Source of the DNA: Spirochaetes bacterium ADurb.Bin218
GTDB taxonomy: Bacteria > Spirochaetota > UBA4802 > UBA5550
DNA: 64,000 nt
Assembly (NCBI GenBank): GCA_002069965.1
Contig: MWCI01000006.1
Coordinates: forward strand, 888-64,887
Direction of reading: 5' to 3'
The notes under the pieces were generated by a model. That model had not been told where the DNA came from. It saw only the letters and a list, made by a program, of their open reading frames with translations, and did no database searches. Position 1 is the first letter of the stretch; every line of letters starts with the position of its first letter. A program made the translations under genes and the position numbers. Below, in pieces: positions 1,197-56,723 of this stretch.

Positions 1197-2687
1197 TTAC
1201 AATAATCTCTCAATGGCGCTTTTCCATAGATCGATTTGCTTATCTCTTTCCTGCTTATTCATAACAGGCTCAAATCTAACGCATACTTTATTTTCTGAGG
1301 CAATCTCATCAATACTTTTGAAAACACCTGTTGCAACTCCTGCAAGGTATGCAGCACCAAGGGCTGTTGATTCTCTATTTTCTGGAATCAAAACAGGCAC
1401 ACCAAGAATGTCTGACTGAAACTGCATCAAGAATCTGTTACTGGTTGCTCCTCCATCAACACGAAGCTCATGAATCTTCTTCCCGGTGTCCTGTTCCATT
1501 GCATGGATAACATCCATGGATTGAAATGCAATAGACTTTAAGGCTGCTCTTACGATTTGTTCCCTCGTTGTGTCCCTTGTAAGTCCAAATATTGCACCTC
1601 TTGCATCCATCTTCCAGTAGGGTGCACCAAGACCAACAAAGGCTGGCACAAAAACAACCTCATCCTCTTTGTTGAACTGAGAGTTTGCCATACCTTCGGA
1701 TTCAGTTGCATTATCAAAAAATTTCATATAATCCCTGAGCCATTGCATTACAGCCCCACCAATAAAAACAGAACCTTCAAGGGCATAGATTGGATTTCCA
1801 TAGTTATCAGGGGTAAGTGTTGTAAGCAGACCATTGGAGGATATAATAAAATCCTCTCCATTGTTTAAGAGCATAAAACATCCTGTGCCGTAGGTGTTTT
1901 TTGTTCCTCCTGGAAAAACGCAATTCTGCCCAACCATAGCAGCCTGTTGATCCCCAGCCATTCCTCCAATAGGAATCCCATCTGGAAGTCCAGGGAAGCC
2001 CAATGTTGTGCCATAGTTATATGCAGAGGGGTAGACCTCTGGTAAAATATTCATTGGAATGCCAAGAATATCACATAATTCATCAGACCATTTTTTTTGC
2101 TTGATATCAAATATAAGAGTTCTTGAGGCATTTGTAAAATCAGTGGCATGGACTTTGCCTCCTGTGAGATTCCAGAGGATCCAGGTGTCAATAGTTCCGA
2201 ATTTGAGCCTGTCGTTTTTTGCAAGAGTTCTTGCCTCAAGGACATTATCAAAAAGCCACTTAATCTTTGTTCCTGAAAAATAAGCATCAATTACAAGGCC
2301 TGTCTTTTCTCTGAATTTGCTTTCATATCCAAGGCTTTTAAGTTGATTGCATATATCAGAAGTTCTTCTGCATTGCCATACAATAGCCTTATGTATTGGC
2401 TTGCCTGTAGAGGAATCCCATAACAAGGTGGTTTCCCTTTGATTTGTTATGCCAATTGCTATTGCAGACTCTGGATTTAAATTGCCTTTTTTTATGGCCT
2501 CTGGTATAAGAATCTTTATTGAATCCCATATCTCAAGAGCATCATGCTCTACCCATCCAGATTTAGGAAAGTATTGAGGGAACTCTCTGTAAACGTTAGA
2601 AAGGACTTTTCCTCTTTCATCAAAACAGAAAACGCTATTGCCAGTTGTACCAAGGTCTATAGATATTATATATTTTTTATCCTCCAT
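1197..2687 (-). CDS. glpK: glycerol kinase
   Basis: 496-aa FGGY-family kinase with N-terminal IISIDLGTTGNS and full-length similarity to GlpK. Confidence 0.9.
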   Translation of the reverse strand: MEDKKYIISIDLGTTGNSVFCFDERGKVLSNVYREFPQYFPKSGWVEHDALEIWDSIKILIPEAIKKGNLNPESAIAIGITNQRETTLLWDSSTGKPIHKAIVWQCRRTSDICNQLKSLGYESKFREKTGLVIDAYFSGTKIKWLFDNVLEARTLAKNDRLKFGTIDTWILWNLTGGKVHATDFTNASRTLIFDIKQKKWSDELCDILGIPMNILPEVYPSAYNYGTTLGFPGLPDGIPIGGMAGDQQAAMVGQNCVFPGGTKNTYGTGCFMLLNNGEDFIISSNGLLTTLTPDNYGNPIYALEGSVFIGGAVMQWLRDYMKFFDNATESEGMANSQFNKEDEVVFVPAFVGLGAPYWKMDARGAIFGLTRDTTREQIVRAALKSIAFQSMDVIHAMEQDTGKKIHELRVDGGATSNRFLMQFQSDILGVPVLIPENRESTALGAAYLAGVATGVFKSIDEIASENKVCVRFEPVMNKQERDKQIDLWKSAIERLL

Positions 2688-5668: not shown

Positions 5669-5716
5669 TGTCTTTTAATTTTGCAGTAAAAGATAGTGCT
5701 AATTTCAAATAAAATT

Positions 5717-5828
5717 CAGTAATAATTCCTGAACTTCTTTTAAAATAAAAATACTCTATTATCTCCGCCGACTTTGACGGGAATGATATTTTCTTGATTT
5801 TACACTAAATATTTAGGAATAATTACTG
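5717..5828 (+). repeat. MITE-like dispersed element, copy A
   Basis: Left end CAGTAATAATTCCTGAAC and right end TTAGGAATAATTACTG form terminal inverted repeats. The shared core is ...CTTCTTTTAAAATAAAAATACTCT...TTTACACTAAA(A/T)ATTTAGGAATAATTACTG. Confidence 0.6.
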
Positions 5829-5901
5829 AATAAAATTTATACTTTTCCTTGACAAGGTCTCTTTTTCGGTTTAATTCTGGAAAAAACATCAGGGGGATAT
5901 T

Positions 5902-7560
5902 ATGAGACTTGGAATTGATGTCGGGGGGACTCATACTGATGCTGTAATTGTTGATCAGGCAAAGGGAGTAATAGCAAAATATAAAGTGAAAACTCTTAAA
6001 GAGGATCTCCTTGGAACAATAATACATTCCCTTAAAGAGATAACCGCAAATCAGGATATATCAAAAATTACAAATGTAAATTTAAGCACAACACTGTCTA
6101 CAAATGCAATTGTAGAAAACAGGCTGGAAGAAACAGCACTATTTCTGTCATCAGGACCTGGTATTGATCCAGAAAATTTTGCAATAGGTAATAATACATA
6201 TATCATAAATGGTTCAATAGATCACAGGGGAAGTGAGGTTTTAGGCCTTGACAGTATTCAACTCAAAAAATCTTTAAAGGAGTGTGCAGATAAAAACATA
6301 AAGGTCTTTGCTGCTGCAACTAAATTTTCTACAAGAAATAATAAACACGAGCTTACTATCAAGGAGGCTGCAATACCCTTTTGCGATTACATAACCATGG
6401 GGCATGAGATATCTGGTCTTTTGAGTTTTCCGCGGCGAGCAGCAACTGCTTATTATAATTCTGCTGTATGGAGGATTTATAATAATTTTATAAACTCAGT
6501 TATAGACGCCATGGCAAATATTGGGATTAAGGCTCCCCTGAATATTTTGAAGGCAGATGGTGGAACAATGCCTCTTGAAATATCACGAAGAGTTCCTGTT
6601 GAATCAATACTCTCTGGGCCTGCTGCAAGTATCATGGGAATAATTGCTCTGTGCAATATAAAAGAAGACTCAGTGATACTTGACATAGGGGGAACAACTA
6701 CAGATATAGCAATTTTTGCAGCAGGTTCTCCTCTTGTAAATAGGGAAGGTGCAGCACTTGAGGGAACCCCAACCCTTGTGAGATCCCTTGAAAATAGATC
6801 TATTGGCATAGGTGGAGACTCTGCAATAAAAATAGAAAACGGTAAGGTTGTAACAGGTCCAGAAAGATTTGGTCCTTGTATGGCTGATGGTGGCAATATG
6901 CCTTGTCTTATAGATGCTTTGAATTTTAAGAAAATTATACAATATAACAATAGGGATGCCTCAGAAAGAGGAATTATAGAACTTGCAAAGAAAAATAAAT
7001 TTAAAGCTGATCATCTTGCTGATGCTGCAATAAATTTTGCTGCAGAGAGAATAAATGCAGAAATTGAAAAAATGCTTTTTGAGCTAAATAGCAAGCCCGT
7101 TTATACAATACATGATATGATACATGCTGAAAAAATTATTCCCAAAAAGATTTATATAATAGGCGGCCCTGCTAAAGCTCTGGCAGATGTTTTAAGTGGA
7201 GATATTGAGATACTTGTTCCAGAGGACTATGACGTTGCCAATGCAATAGGGGCGGCTCTTGCAAGAACCACTTTTGAAACAGAGCTCTTTTGCGATACAG
7301 GCAAAGGGAAGATGATTATTCCAAATATCAATGTGGAAAAAAATGTTACAAGGCAATATAACCTTGATGAAGCTATATCTGATGCTAAGACCTTCACAAG
7401 GGAATATCTTAGAAAGCATGGAATAGATATAAACCTTGATGAGCTCACAATAACAGAGGCAACAAATTTTAGGATGATAAATGATTTTTATTCAGCGGGC
7501 AATGATATAAGAGTCAAGTGTCAGATGAAGCCCAATGTAGTTATGTATTTACACAAATGA
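5902..7560 (+). CDS. hydantoinase/oxoprolinase-family (HyuA-like) ASKHA ATPase
   Basis: Two actin-like ATPase phosphate motifs, MRLGIDVGGTHTDAV and ILDIGGTTTDIAIF. At 552 aa the size is consistent with Hydantoinase_A. No HyuB partner is adjacent. Confidence 0.6.
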   Translation: MRLGIDVGGTHTDAVIVDQAKGVIAKYKVKTLKEDLLGTIIHSLKEITANQDISKITNVNLSTTLSTNAIVENRLEETALFLSSGPGIDPENFAIGNNTYIINGSIDHRGSEVLGLDSIQLKKSLKECADKNIKVFAAATKFSTRNNKHELTIKEAAIPFCDYITMGHEISGLLSFPRRAATAYYNSAVWRIYNNFINSVIDAMANIGIKAPLNILKADGGTMPLEISRRVPVESILSGPAASIMGIIALCNIKEDSVILDIGGTTTDIAIFAAGSPLVNREGAALEGTPTLVRSLENRSIGIGGDSAIKIENGKVVTGPERFGPCMADGGNMPCLIDALNFKKIIQYNNRDASERGIIELAKKNKFKADHLADAAINFAAERINAEIEKMLFELNSKPVYTIHDMIHAEKIIPKKIYIIGGPAKALADVLSGDIEILVPEDYDVANAIGAALARTTFETELFCDTGKGKMIIPNINVEKNVTRQYNLDEAISDAKTFTREYLRKHGIDINLDELTITEATNFRMINDFYSAGNDIRVKCQMKPNVVMYLHK

Positions 7561-13991: not shown

Positions 13992-13993
13992 AA

Positions 13994-14090
13994 TAGTTTT
14001 ATTCCTTAACTTTTTTAGCCAGGAAATGCTTTAACTCAGCGGCTTTTTTTGCTGAGTGGTTACAGTAAAAATAATTTTTATAAATTATAA
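13994..14090 (+). repeat. degenerate partial copy of the MITE-like element
   Basis: TTATTCCTTAACTTTTTTA, then a GC hairpin (CTCAGCGGCTTTTTTTGCTGAG), then TTACAGTAAAAAT. It resembles the left TIR, core hairpin and TTACACTAAAAAT box of copies A-E. The right TIR is not recognisable. Confidence 0.3.
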
Positions 14091-14377
14091 GTATAGTTTA
14101 TAAATAAATCTTTGAAAAGTCTATAAAAATTGGGGATCTTTGCAAGTTAATGCCTTAACCTTCATATTGAATAACATATTTGAATATATCAGCCCTCTTT
14201 AGCTCAGGAAATGATAATATTATTTATTACAGTGAAAAGTATTTTTAAGAATTATTATTGAAAACTTTATGATGCTCTTATTGTATTTCAGGAGCATAAC
14301 TTGAAATTTTTATTGACATTTGCCAAAAAAAGACACTAATTTAGTTTTAAAAAATAATCATAATAAAAGAGGTTTTT

Positions 14378-16231: not shown

Positions 16232-16379
16232 AAATATATAGAAAACTCATCCTGTATAAAAAAACCTGAAGCTTTCGCTTCAGGAAACAGGAGAGTACAA
16301 TGAAAAAGTTTACTTTTGATATTAAAGAACAAAAAAATTACCATAAGTTACAAAAATCCCGCAGAGTATTAAAGTTTTT

Positions 16380-16506
16380 TAGTAATTATTTCTAAATAAA
16401 TTTTTAGTGTAAAATCAAGAAAATATCATCCTTGCAGCCGAAGGCTGAGGGGATGATAGATTATTTTTATTTTAAAAGTTTAAAAGAAGTTAAGGAATAA
16501 ATACTG
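16380..16506 (-). repeat. MITE-like dispersed element, copy B (inverted orientation)
   Basis: The reverse complement aligns to copy A: CAGTATTTATTCCTTAACTTCTTTTAAA...ATCATCCCCTCAGCCTTCGGCTGCAAGGATGAT...TTTACACTAAAAATTTATTTAGAAATAATTACTA. Confidence 0.6.
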
Positions 16507-16583
16507 AAAGCTAAAAGAGGGGGAGGCAACCAAGCGGGAAACCCACCTGGTTGCCAATATATATTCAAACATGATTTATAAGC

Positions 16584-18837: not shown

Positions 18838-18889
18838 AAAATAGTCAAGAATTATCAAAAAATTTTTTAAAAAATTTCATCAATTTAAT

Positions 18890-19009
18890 TCAGTATTTAT
18901 TCCTTAACTTCTTTTAAAATAAAAATACTTTATTATCCCTGCTGCTTTTGGCTGAGGGGATAATAGTTCTGTCATTTTATAAAAAAAATTACATTTAGGA
19001 ATAATTACT
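18890..19009 (+). repeat. MITE-like dispersed element, copy C
   Basis: CAGTATTTATTCCTTAACTTCTTTTAAAATAAAAATACTTTATTATCCC...GGCTGAGGGGATAAT...TTACATTTAGGAATAATTACTA. Confidence 0.6.
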
Positions 19010-19033
19010 AAAAATATTTTTAGTATAAGAACC

Positions 19034-28553: not shown

Positions 28554-28597
28554 CTTGGTCTCCTTAAAGATTTGTTTTTTTAATTTAAAAATAAATA

Positions 28598-28705
28598 CAA
28601 GTATTTATTCATTAACTTCTATTAAAATAAAATACTCTCTTACCCCCGAAGCCTTCGGCGGTGAGGATAATTTACACTAAAAATTACATTTAGGAATAAT
28701 TAGTG
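28598..28705 (+). repeat. MITE-like dispersed element, copy D
   Basis: CAAGTATTTATTCATTAACTTCTATTAAAATAAAATACTCTCTTACCCCCGAAGCCTTCGGCGGTGAGGATAATTTACACTAAAAATTACATTTAGGAATAATTAGTG. Confidence 0.6.
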
Positions 28706-28750
28706 AAATAAATAAGATATTTTTAACATGTATAATTACTGTGTCAAATA

Positions 28751-28822
28751 AAAAAATACCGTATGGTATTTTTTTATTTGACGATTTGATTTTCTGTTGA
28801 CAAAAAATACCGTATGGTATTT
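28751..28822 (+). promoter_or_regulatory. duplicated palindromic operator overlapping the promoter of the Mo/W oxidoreductase operon
   Basis: AAAAAATACCGTATGGTATTTTTTT at 28751..28775. AAAAATACCGTATGGTATTT at 28803..28822, preceded by TTGACA (28797..28802) and followed by TATAAA. The arms AAAATACC/GGTATTTT are separated by the spacer gtat. Confidence 0.5.
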
Positions 28823-35348: not shown

Positions 35349-35499
35349 TTTTAATCTCCATTTTTTTTAATTTAAAACTTCTTAGCTTTAAGCCAGCGAA
35401 AATAGATTTTGCAAAATAATCTATATAATCAAAAAACATCTATTGAAATTAAGACTAAACGGGAAGTTCATTCCCTACACCTCCAATTCATTTAGATAT

Positions 35500-35528
35500 A
35501 AAAAAAGCCGTCACTGTTTCGTGACGGC
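35500..35528 (-). terminator. attenuator terminator of the leuA leader
   Basis: On the minus strand GCCGUCAC-gaaaca-GUGACGGC is followed by UUUUUUU. The 5' arm plus loop can instead pair with the upstream GUUUCGUGAU to form an antiterminator. Confidence 0.7.
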
Positions 35529-35555
35529 TTTCGATTTTTCTATATTAAAAAGACA

Positions 35556-35627
35556 TCACGAAACATGGCCAGCTGTAAGCAGGCTAAGGAGGAGTCCTAG
35601 TAATAGTAAACCCTTTTGTGATGTCAT
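35556..35627 (-). CDS. leucine leader peptide (23 aa: MTSQKGLLLLGLLLSLLTAGHVS)
   Basis: Minus-strand ORF atg aca tca caa aag ggt tta cta tta cta gga ctc ctc ctt agc ctg ctt aca gct ggc cat gtt tcg tga. It has 9 Leu, including runs of 4 and 3. The stop codon overlaps the antiterminator segment, directly upstream of the leuA terminator. Confidence 0.65.
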   Translation of the reverse strand: MTSQKGLLLLGLLLSLLTAGHVS

Positions 35628-35867
35628 AAAAATTACTCTCTAATTGCTAAAGTTAAAACATTTATAGCTTTCTTATGTCAATAAAAAATTTTAAAATTTT
35701 GTTTTTTTGATTAATAATAGTTAATAAGAATATCTTTGATGGTAAAATAGCATTTTAAATATTAGAATGTTTTATTCAATATAGATATTTAATGAATAAC
35801 ATTGATTTTTGAGCTTTTTTGTGAAAGTTTTCAGTGTTTATTCTTTAAGTTTTTTAAAAATAAAGCT

Positions 35868-40892: not shown

Positions 40893-40994
40893 ATTAACCC
40901 TCCTTTTGTTTTTATTGATATATATTAATTAAGATATAGTTATAAGGCAAAAGTTTAAATCTTTTAAGAGAAAATTTTTATTTTTAAATTTTTT

Positions 40995-41109
40995 CACTTA
41001 TTCCTAAATATAATTTTTAGTGTAAAATTAAGAAACCCTTATGCCGAAGACTTCGGCTGAGGGGATAAGAGAGTATTTTTATCGTAAAAAAGTTAAGGAA
41101 TAAACAGTG
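40995..41109 (-). repeat. MITE-like dispersed element, copy E (inverted orientation)
   Basis: Reverse complement: CACTGTTTATTCCTTAACTTTTTTACGATAAAAATACTCTCTTATCCCCTCAGCCGAAGTCTTCGGCATAAGGG...TTTACACTAAAAATTATATTTAGGAATAAGTG. Confidence 0.6.
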
Positions 41110-41215
41110 AAAATTTTTCAATGTTAATTTCTATTAAAGTAATAGATATTCTTATGAATTATTAGTGGAATTTTTTTAAATAGGGCTTGACGTTAATAGG
41201 GGTATTTTATATTAC

Positions 41216-56543: not shown

Positions 56544-56665
56544 TTCGATCTCCTTATCCTTGGTATAAGTTTTTAAATGCTAATACTAATTAATTTAATA
56601 GCAAAGTCTAATATGTCAATAAAAATTATCGGCAATGTGATAATTTTTATAATAGAATTTAATCC

Positions 56666-56714
56666 TTGACATGAAATTTATGTATTATATTATGCAACAA
56701 ATTGCATAATATAA
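56666..56714 (+). promoter_or_regulatory. sigma70-like promoter with perfect 13-bp inverted-repeat operator upstream of the flavoprotein gene
   Basis: TTGACA at 56666..56671. TTATATTATGCAA-caaa-TTGCATAATATAA at 56685..56714. RBS AAGGGGGA is followed by ATG at 56724. Confidence 0.5.
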
Positions 56715-56723
56715 GGGGGATCT

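Follow-up and report, generated by a model that had tools for sequence, protein, structure and literature searches.

What is the short repeat at positions 28598 to 28705 of a 64,000-nucleotide stretch of DNA from Spirochaetes bacterium ADurb.Bin218 (contig MWCI01000006.1, positions 888 to 64,887), and why does it recur elsewhere in the same stretch, referred to here as the window? A first-pass annotation, made from the letters alone, had described five intact copies and one degenerate copy in the window, each with terminal inverted repeats (TIRs) enclosing a GC-rich hairpin, and had proposed three roles: a non-autonomous mobile element, a structural or terminator element resembling the repetitive extragenic palindromes (REPs), or a small-RNA family. 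The first of these is very probably correct. The repeats have the properties of a miniature inverted-repeat transposable element (MITE), that is, a TIR-bounded, non-coding, non-autonomous mobile element of about 121 nt, and this assignment is carried by their defined ends, their TIRs and the target-site duplications (TSDs) of 9 bp that flank them.

The family was collected from the window and from 75 blocks of seven species known as metagenome-assembled genomes (MAGs), which gave 105 copies scoring at least 40 bits. Ends and duplications were analyzed on 104 of these, aligned together with 45-nt flanks. The canonical element is 121 nt long. It begins with CAGTrTTwATTCCTTAACTT, continues through an AT-rich arm to a central palindrome, tATCCCCGCCGCC NNN GGCGGCGGGGATa, and returns through a second AT-rich arm to the right end, TTTAGGAATAATTACTG. 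Column conservation rises from about 40-50% in the flank to more than 90% at CAGTA and falls again just past TACTG, which bears out the defined ends that a mobile element requires. The terminal 17-19 bases form imperfect inverted repeats, with the left end 5'-CAGTrTTwATTCCTTAAC and the right end TTTAGGAATAATTACTG-3'; the first estimate of about 16 bp (TTCAGTAwTTATTCCTwAA by the present measurement) was therefore close to the 17-19 bp found. The TIR helix, counted over 18 columns in 100 copies, is 76.8% paired and most of its positions are more than 90% conserved.

The target-site duplication is exactly 9 bp. The mean identity of the left and right flanks is 81% when 9 nucleotides are compared, versus 42-48% at lengths of 7, 8, 10 and 11. 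Sixty-two of the 104 copies (60%) have flanks that agree at 8 or more of the 9 positions, and in 39 copies all nine agree. When the left and right flanks of different copies were paired as a control, 0.7% reached 8/9. The duplicated target is AT-rich and has the form A-N7-T, in which the first position prefers A and the ninth T. Many of the duplicated 9-mers are non-trivial, examples being GAGTAAAAG, ATCTCCATT, TTCAGAAAT and GTATCATTT. A further copy from the window's species, about 9.7 kb past the right end of the window (block L230, 20342-20452), is flanked by GAAAGTATA on both sides with 9/9 identity. A search for duplications of TA or TTAA had been suggested; duplications are indeed present, but they are these AT-rich 9-mers and neither TA nor TTAA. 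The 9-bp flank duplication settles the nature of the element as a mobile one. Together with it are found the other marks of a MITE, namely small size (121 nt, within the range of about 50-600 bp for bacterial MITEs) without coding capacity, sharp-ended TIRs, a TSD of fixed length and multiple dispersed copies. The element is too short to encode a transposase.

Within the window, the copies were searched with a profile hidden Markov model (nhmmer) built from the five copies first claimed. All five were matched at E = 1e-30 to 1e-34, over the spans 5710-5835 (+), 16373-16512 (-), 18887-19017 (+), 28593-28712 (+) and 40988-41115 (-), and the rest of the 64 kb has no comparable match. Boundaries refined from the 104-copy alignment and the flanking duplications agree within 1 nt with those originally given (Table 1), and the window copies are 107-127 nt long. 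A repeat search recovered shared segments among the five sites in both orientations. Each intact copy also gives a reverse-strand match (E = 1e-4 to 1e-9), as expected from the inverted-repeat symmetry of the element.

The first census was correct in what it listed but incomplete. Its degenerate copy, placed at 13994..14090, is real although weak (E = 0.04), and keeps an exact 14-mer of the left TIR, TTATTCCTTAACTT, at 13999. Overlooked were a second degenerate copy and a truncated left end (14147-14265 and 35826-35864). The two degenerate copies lie side by side at 13992-14377, in a divergent region flanked by a homocysteine S-methyltransferase gene and a small open reading frame (ORF); this intergenic region has been struck by insertions repeatedly.

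The family is not restricted to the window. One genome per species was scanned with the exact pattern ATTCMTKAACTT-N60-90-TTTAGRAATAA, and at least 103 stretches matched. Among the matches listed, 75 belong to seven MAG species whose labels read uncultured Leptospirales or Spirochaetota, and all of these match the profile. The family is thus present in at least seven species-level genomes, and the genomes with copies include a complete chromosome of 4.9 Mb, OW818666.1. The other 28 matches listed are in other phyla, fail the profile and were set aside as chance, as were three matches in viral contigs, which lie in coding-like DNA and also fail it. A BLAST search of a plasmid collection gave weak 39-nt matches to Borreliella plasmids (E = 0.3) that were treated as noise. 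The window's own species is represented by contigs in many JGI metagenome samples and by the NCBI MAG GCA_022704545.1, and the coding DNA of the window is about 70% identical to that of the MAG 'Spirochaetae bacterium HGW-Spirochaetae-5'.

The 28 stray matches bear on the simplest alternative, that there is no real family and the copies are chance or low-complexity resemblances among AT-rich intergenic regions. The context is AT-rich (about 36% GC), short matches are common in such DNA, and the scan pattern evidently can be hit by accident. This explanation is nevertheless already refuted by profile E-values of about 1e-30 or below, by the sharp ends, and by some 100 further copies in relatives, built on the same 121-nt plan and flanked by 9-bp TSDs.

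Three related genomes, each sampled in part, contain at least 52, at least 28 and at least 12 copies. With the copy that brought each block into the sample set aside, the density in these genomes is 0.04-0.05 copies per kb; in the window it is 0.08-0.11 per kb. A density of 0.04-0.05 per kb implies about 200-250 copies on a 4.9-Mb chromosome, so the earlier extrapolation to hundreds of copies per genome is plausible.

Taking intergenic to mean outside ORFs of at least 100 amino acids, 104 of the 105 copies are intergenic; those of the window all are, in both orientations, as had been noted from the start. Divergent intergenic regions hold 47% of the copies and make up 28% of the regions, an enrichment, and convergent (3'-3') regions are depleted, with 8% of copies versus 17% of regions. 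The orientation of the element relative to neighbouring genes is random: gene starts are faced by the right end in 63 cases and by the left end in 61, and gene stops in 26 and 28, respectively. The genes flanking the window copies are ordinary metabolic or regulatory genes by Pfam, have no common theme, and include, besides those named in Table 1 (where pgk is the gene for phosphoglycerate kinase, PGK), genes for an FmdE-like protein and a molybdopterin oxidoreductase.

Table 1. Coordinates of the MITE copies and their parts in the window, and of other repeat families in related blocks (block names precede positions that lie outside the window)
Feature	Position	Strand	Evidence or remark
MITE copy c4 (the focal repeat), 108 nt, 12-nt internal deletion versus the 121-nt canonical form	28598..28705	+	nhmmer E = 7.7e-30; alignment
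c4 left 9-bp TSD, AAATAAATA	28589..28597	.	9/9 identical to 28706-28714
c4 right 9-bp TSD, AAATAAATA	28706..28714	.	9/9 identical to left copy
c4 left TIR, CAAGTATTTATTCATTAAC	28598..28616	+	best-conserved columns of the family alignment; pairs with right TIR
c4 right TIR, ATTTAGGAATAATTAGTG	28688..28705	+	family alignment; pairing with left TIR
c4 central GC hairpin, decayed, CCCCCGAAGCCTTCGGCGGTGAGG	28643..28666	+	fold about -14 kcal/mol versus about -28 for canonical ATCCCCGCCGCC-NNN-GGCGGCGGGGAT
MITE copy c1, between polysaccharide-deacetylase and hydantoinase genes	5717..5828	+	profile match, flanks
c1 TSD, AATAAAATT, 9/9	5708-5716 and 5829-5837		flank comparison
MITE copy c2, 8-nt internal duplication, TSD decayed (5/9); convergent intergenic region, 3' of acetyl-CoA hydrolase/transferase gene	16380..16506	-	profile match, flanks
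MITE copy c3, between TetR and histidine-kinase genes, TSD 6/9	18891..19010	+	profile match, flanks
MITE copy c5, divergent region between pgk and ArsR-methyltransferase gene	40995..41109	-	profile match
c5 flanking repeats, 8/9, AAAAATTTT and AAAAAATTT (element orientation)	beside 40995..41109		
Degenerate copy, left TIR core intact, hairpin and right TIR decayed	13998..14084	+	nhmmer E = 0.038
Second degenerate copy, both TIR-like ends visible	14147..14265	+	nhmmer E = 0.009, model positions 15-134
Truncated left end, CAGTGTTTATTCTTTAAGT..., abuts decarboxylase gene stop	35826..35864	+	nhmmer E = 0.06, model positions 4-42; TIR with 3 mismatches
Second MITE-like family	L010 ~6870-7090		
Second MITE-like family	L054 ~7160-7390		
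Second MITE-like family	L103 ~6850-7140	-	
Second MITE-like family	L032 ~2176-2463	-	
Third repeat family	L034 6832-7080		
Third repeat family	L108 6249-6498		
Third repeat family	L041 2595-2844		

Site occupancy varies among related species, as seen at three orthologous loci. A block of HGW-Spirochaetae-5 (L015) has a copy with a perfect duplication of ATTAATTTT, and the orthologous position of the window, 56660-56723, is empty. Likewise, block L055 is filled and the syntenic block L022 is empty. Copy c2 and a copy in another species (L105, 5534-5654) share an orthologous neighbour, each lying 3' of the acetyl-CoA hydrolase/transferase gene. The two are in opposite orientations, have different duplications and are 78 and 207 nt from the stop codon; they are independent insertions, which suggests that the region 3' of this gene is a preferred target.

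The copies also differ in age. Pairwise identity reaches 99% in the Leptospirales MAG CAZBFP (mean 84%); the window copies average 69%. The near-identical copies indicate recent bursts in some genomes. The low identity of the window copies, together with their presence on every contig of the species that was fetched (see below), makes them look old and fixed; they would be decaying relics of past insertions.

Several observations weigh against the assignment to a MITE. First, a search of the window, some 570 kb of related blocks and a further 16 kb or so of flank, a small and biased sample, turned up no cognate transposase and no full-length insertion sequence (IS) with matching TIRs. Second, a clean empty site, in which an otherwise identical locus has a single 9-mer, was not found; the loci compared, syntenic pairs of OW818666 and PGXT among them, belong to species that are about 70-80% identical and whose intergenic DNA aligns poorly. 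Third, all fetched metagenome contigs of the window's species carry the same copies, and there is no sign of current mobility in them. Finally, simple selfish-DNA logic does not account for so strong a conservation of the GC hairpin.

The parent element was sought in several ways. A fuzzy search allowing up to 4 mismatches in 19, outside the known copies, found no pair of TIRs at insertion-sequence spacing (0.8-3 kb) in the window and the roughly 570 kb of related blocks. An all-against-all BLAST of the blocks for multi-copy segments longer than 250 bp returned synteny and two other MITE-like families, and no IS. The ORFs beside solo TIR-like sites were assigned by Pfam to MgsA, a methyl-accepting chemotaxis protein (MCP), RNase Y, a GGDEF protein and a PIN protein; none is a transposase. 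The cognate transposase that the first-pass annotation had suggested looking for was thus not recovered from this sample.

The element is probably moved in trans by the DDE-type transposase of a resident IS. Such a transposase would recognize the TIRs and cut the target with a 9-bp stagger. The element itself is dispersed through the intergenic DNA of several related uncultured Leptospirales and Spirochaetota genomes, with occupancy differing from species to species. By end sequence and duplication length, the IS4 family appears the best fit. Elements of the IS4 family end in 5'-CA and duplicate 8-10 bp (IS4Sa), 9 bp (IS10) or 8-9 bp (IS50) of their target (PMC2266710, Table 1). Derivation from this family calls for 5'-CA or 5'-CT ends, a TSD of 8-13 bp and a source element with an IS4-type (DDE + YREK) transposase. 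The present family shares the 5'-CA ends and a target duplication of about one helical turn, and is compatible to that extent. It differs in having no transposase gene, and the subgroups have end signatures of another kind: at position 9 IS4Sa carries T and the present family an invariant A, and the ISH3 signature (CRGT) agrees with the initial four bases, yet ISH3 duplications are 4-5 bp. IS982, whose ends are 5'-AC, does not fit as the parent type.

The most unusual part of the element is its center. The stem ATCCCCGCCGCC/GGCGGCGGGGAT is almost invariant across the seven species and folds with about -28 kcal/mol. Along with the TIRs it is among the least variable positions, and the arms differ between subfamilies. 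The 3-nt loop (alignment columns 72-74) is, on the other hand, among the most variable positions of the element. The loop is GAA in 47 copies, GTA in 9, AAA in 8, TTC in 7, ATA in 7, TAC in 5 and TTT in 2, and these triplets form reverse-complement pairs: GAA/TTC, GTA/TAC and AAA/TTT. This looks like the pattern expected of a DNA palindrome that undergoes loop inversion or template switching, and not of a strand-specific RNA.

In the window's own species the hairpins have decayed. They fold with -7 to -16 kcal/mol versus about -28 for the canonical form, with partial or shifted pairings and no clean compensatory changes, and their single-strand folding z-score is about -3 versus -6. In the L230 copy beyond the right end of the window, a perfect TSD accompanies a hairpin that has decayed (CCACGCCACC TTC GGCTGCTGGG). 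Decay may be quicker in the hairpin than in the flanks, unless the stems of the source copies were imperfect from the outset. It had been proposed that the hairpin varies between copies but keeps its pairing and is therefore under selection. The family as a whole does conserve the stem strongly, whereas the window copies, on which the proposal was based, show decay and shifted pairings. The palindrome offered as an example, CCCCTCAGCCTTCGGCTGAGGGG, occurs nowhere in the window as written; its half-sites alone are present, once each at 16443, 18950 and 41055, in three copies. An exact scan of 241 million metagenome records for CCCCTCAGCC-N3-6-GGCTGAGGGG found no family member with this variant stem intact, and its 117 matches were rejected as generic GC hairpins of unrelated organisms. 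The decay in the window's genome speaks against purifying selection having acted on the hairpin once the copies were in place.

With a conservation equal to that of the TIRs, the stem is probably needed for efficient propagation of the element, speculative as this is. The palindrome CCCCGCCGCC-N3-GGCGGCGGGG might be a functional module in its own right, either a DNA hairpin or cruciform clamp that joins the ends and aids mobilization, or the site of a dimeric protein of the host or associated with the transposase. As a clamp it might nucleate the fold-back of both ends. Such a module is favoured by a stem retained in at least seven species alongside diverging arms and a 3-nt spacer that varies and inverts, and is best regarded as a tentative, rather doubtful proposal. 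If it were true, the family would lend itself to studies of how an internal structure controls MITE amplification, and the loop inversions would be an in vivo record of hairpin extrusion.

Conservation of a stem can also point to RNA. The repeats might be a family of small-RNA genes or a structured cis-regulatory RNA whose hairpin is selected at the RNA level, and the folding z-scores given above, -6 for the canonical copy and about -3 for the window copies, agree with this. Pairing was counted on a hand-specified structure over 100 copies. The hairpin is 93.5% paired and at least one double change is seen in 7 of its 13 pairs. But the double changes amount to 36 of 3093 cells, one slid control gives an equal count, and RNAalifold found no consensus structure in the 100-copy alignment. 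Support from covariation, which the first-pass annotation had proposed as a test for a structured RNA, is therefore weak; the signal is one of conservation and not of compensation, and a mostly invariant stem is uninformative about RNA. No Rfam family matches the window at gathering thresholds. When the canonical copy at L051 605-727 was searched at a permissive E-value, the best match was MIR3932, at 31 bits versus a cut-off of 150, and MIR1435 was also matched. These sub-threshold hits to plant miRNA precursors probably reflect nothing but the shared long-hairpin shape of MITE-like sequences.

An outward promoter would also suit an RNA gene. A sigma-70-like TTTACA-17/18-AATAAT is present in the right arm of c2 and of the OW818666/PGXT copies, with the -10 hexamer inside the TIR. 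At 9 or more of 12 positions the motif is found in the right arm of 44 of 100 copies, versus 2 of 100 in the left arm, and it is lost from the largest subfamily, that of CAZBFP. An outward promoter was accordingly rejected as a conserved feature. With the random orientation relative to genes and the reverse-complement loop pairs that fit a DNA palindrome also standing against it, an RNA role for the family is highly improbable.

The remaining proposal is that the host has exapted the repeat as a structural or regulatory element, for example a stabilizer of mRNA like REPs and bacterial interspersed mosaic elements (BIMEs), or an intrinsic and possibly bidirectional terminator, retained because the hairpin acts on the transcripts of its neighbours. 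A very stable hairpin whose stem is as constant as the TIRs and the intergenic location of the copies would suit this, and in the OW818666/PGXT subfamily a simple terminator scan scored the hairpin plus TATAATTTTT as terminator-like. The same scan found no terminator-like tail in the largest subfamily, and where a T-run is present it is several bases away from the stem. An intrinsic terminator has a GC stem followed immediately by a T-tract and lies in sense orientation at gene 3' ends. The copies have no orientation bias, and they are depleted in convergent regions and enriched in divergent ones. The hairpins of the window's species are decaying though the copies are fixed. REP elements, furthermore, have to our knowledge neither TIRs nor target-site duplications. 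Exaptation of the family as a whole is thus unlikely, if less so than an RNA role, and neither the REP-like or terminator function nor the small-RNA function first suggested is supported.

The terminator-like and promoter-like features, each confined to part of the family, are treated as incidental to the MITE, whose orientation shows no bias. The element would be primarily selfish DNA, and any effects on neighbouring genes, such as the hairpin stalling or stabilizing transcripts or the promoter-like arm firing outward, would be side effects.

Among described elements, MITEAba12 of Acinetobacter, with 113 bp, 16-bp TIRs and 9-bp TSDs (PMC6382973), is the closest analogue in architecture, although it shares no sequence with the present family. 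Both are non-coding and AT-rich, of about 113-121 bp, with imperfect TIRs of 16-19 bp and a 9-bp TSD; both target mostly intergenic, AT-rich DNA and are presumed to be mobilized in trans by a DDE transposase. Unlike in MITEAba12, whose parent is ISAba12, no parent IS was found here in the sample described above. The TIR sequences are unrelated (GGCTTTGTTGCACAAA versus CAGTATTTATTCCTTAA), a conserved GC hairpin core is not reported for MITEAba12, and its hosts are gammaproteobacteria and not spirochaetes.

The Correia elements of Neisseria (CREE or NEMIS) offer a second comparison. These are TIR-bounded elements of about 100-155 bp that occur in hundreds of intergenic copies, fold into a long hairpin and can bear outward promoter-like sequences. 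We know of no cognate transposase identified for them. They duplicate TA, and have TIRs of 26 bp, a site for integration host factor (IHF) and no GC-rich central stem. The present family resembles them in copy number and in having no known parent, and differs in its 9-bp duplication in place of TA, its TIRs of about 19 bp and its GC-rich central stem. REP and BIME sequences are imperfect palindromes of 20-40 nt that are linked to RAYT (Y1) transposases. They too are short, intergenic, palindromic and of high copy number, but an element of 121 nt with 19-bp TIRs and 9-bp TSDs does not belong with them.

The host lineage is one in which such elements are expected. Leptospirales is reported to carry more MITEs than any other bacterial order, with a per-genome median of 154 and about 90% of copies in intergenic DNA (PMC11602168). 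By description, the present family is like those MITEs in host order, density and location. That survey covered RefSeq genomes, whereas the present lineage is known from metagenome-assembled genomes alone. MITEs and their abundance in Leptospirales being already documented, what is described here is a probably new family in a poorly studied lineage, a known type of system with no new mechanism. It accounts for an intergenic repeat that recurs, probably a couple of hundred times per genome, in an uncultured spirochaete lineage common in anaerobic digesters, and the precise model (ends, 9-bp TSD and consensus) can be used for masking and annotation. The family is well delimited and may serve as a marker of the lineage and of recent transposition bursts, as in the CAZBFP genome. 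Its unusual and strongly conserved GC palindrome, with a hypervariable and invertible loop, is the feature that merits the attention of specialists.

Other elements were seen alongside. A second MITE-like family of the CAZBFP MAG, unrelated to the first, is about 230 bp long and has GC-rich TIRs of about 25 bp (CCCCCTGTCCCCCAAAGGGGGCACG); these TIRs are matched in 13 CAZBFP blocks and nowhere in the window. A third repeat family of the same MAG is about 250 bp long with 83-95% identity between copies, and in block L034 one of its repeats is apparently nested within a copy of the second family. The CAZBFP genome seems to be loaded with several non-autonomous elements.

Close to c4, between it and the molybdopterin oxidoreductase gene, the window has a palindrome at 28745-28775, A7-TACC-GTAT-GGTA-T7, that resembles a bidirectional terminator. 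Just upstream of this palindrome, at 28732-28741, is a sequence like a MITE end, ATAATTACTG. Farther along, a 520-nt intergenic region at 35349-35867 lies upstream of a gene like leuA or homocitrate synthase. Within this region, which has no Rfam match at gathering thresholds, lies a GC hairpin, GCCGTCAC...GTGACGGC (about 35508-35531), with a T-run after it on the minus strand; the hairpin could be a terminator or a leader or attenuator. To the left of the window, two blocks of the same species (L233 and L234) diverge beyond about 14430, after the inositol-1-phosphate synthase gene. One continues with a nucleotidyltransferase/substrate-binding pair that resembles a toxin-antitoxin system and the other with a major facilitator superfamily (MFS) transporter and a peptidase U32, which indicates strain-level variation in gene content.

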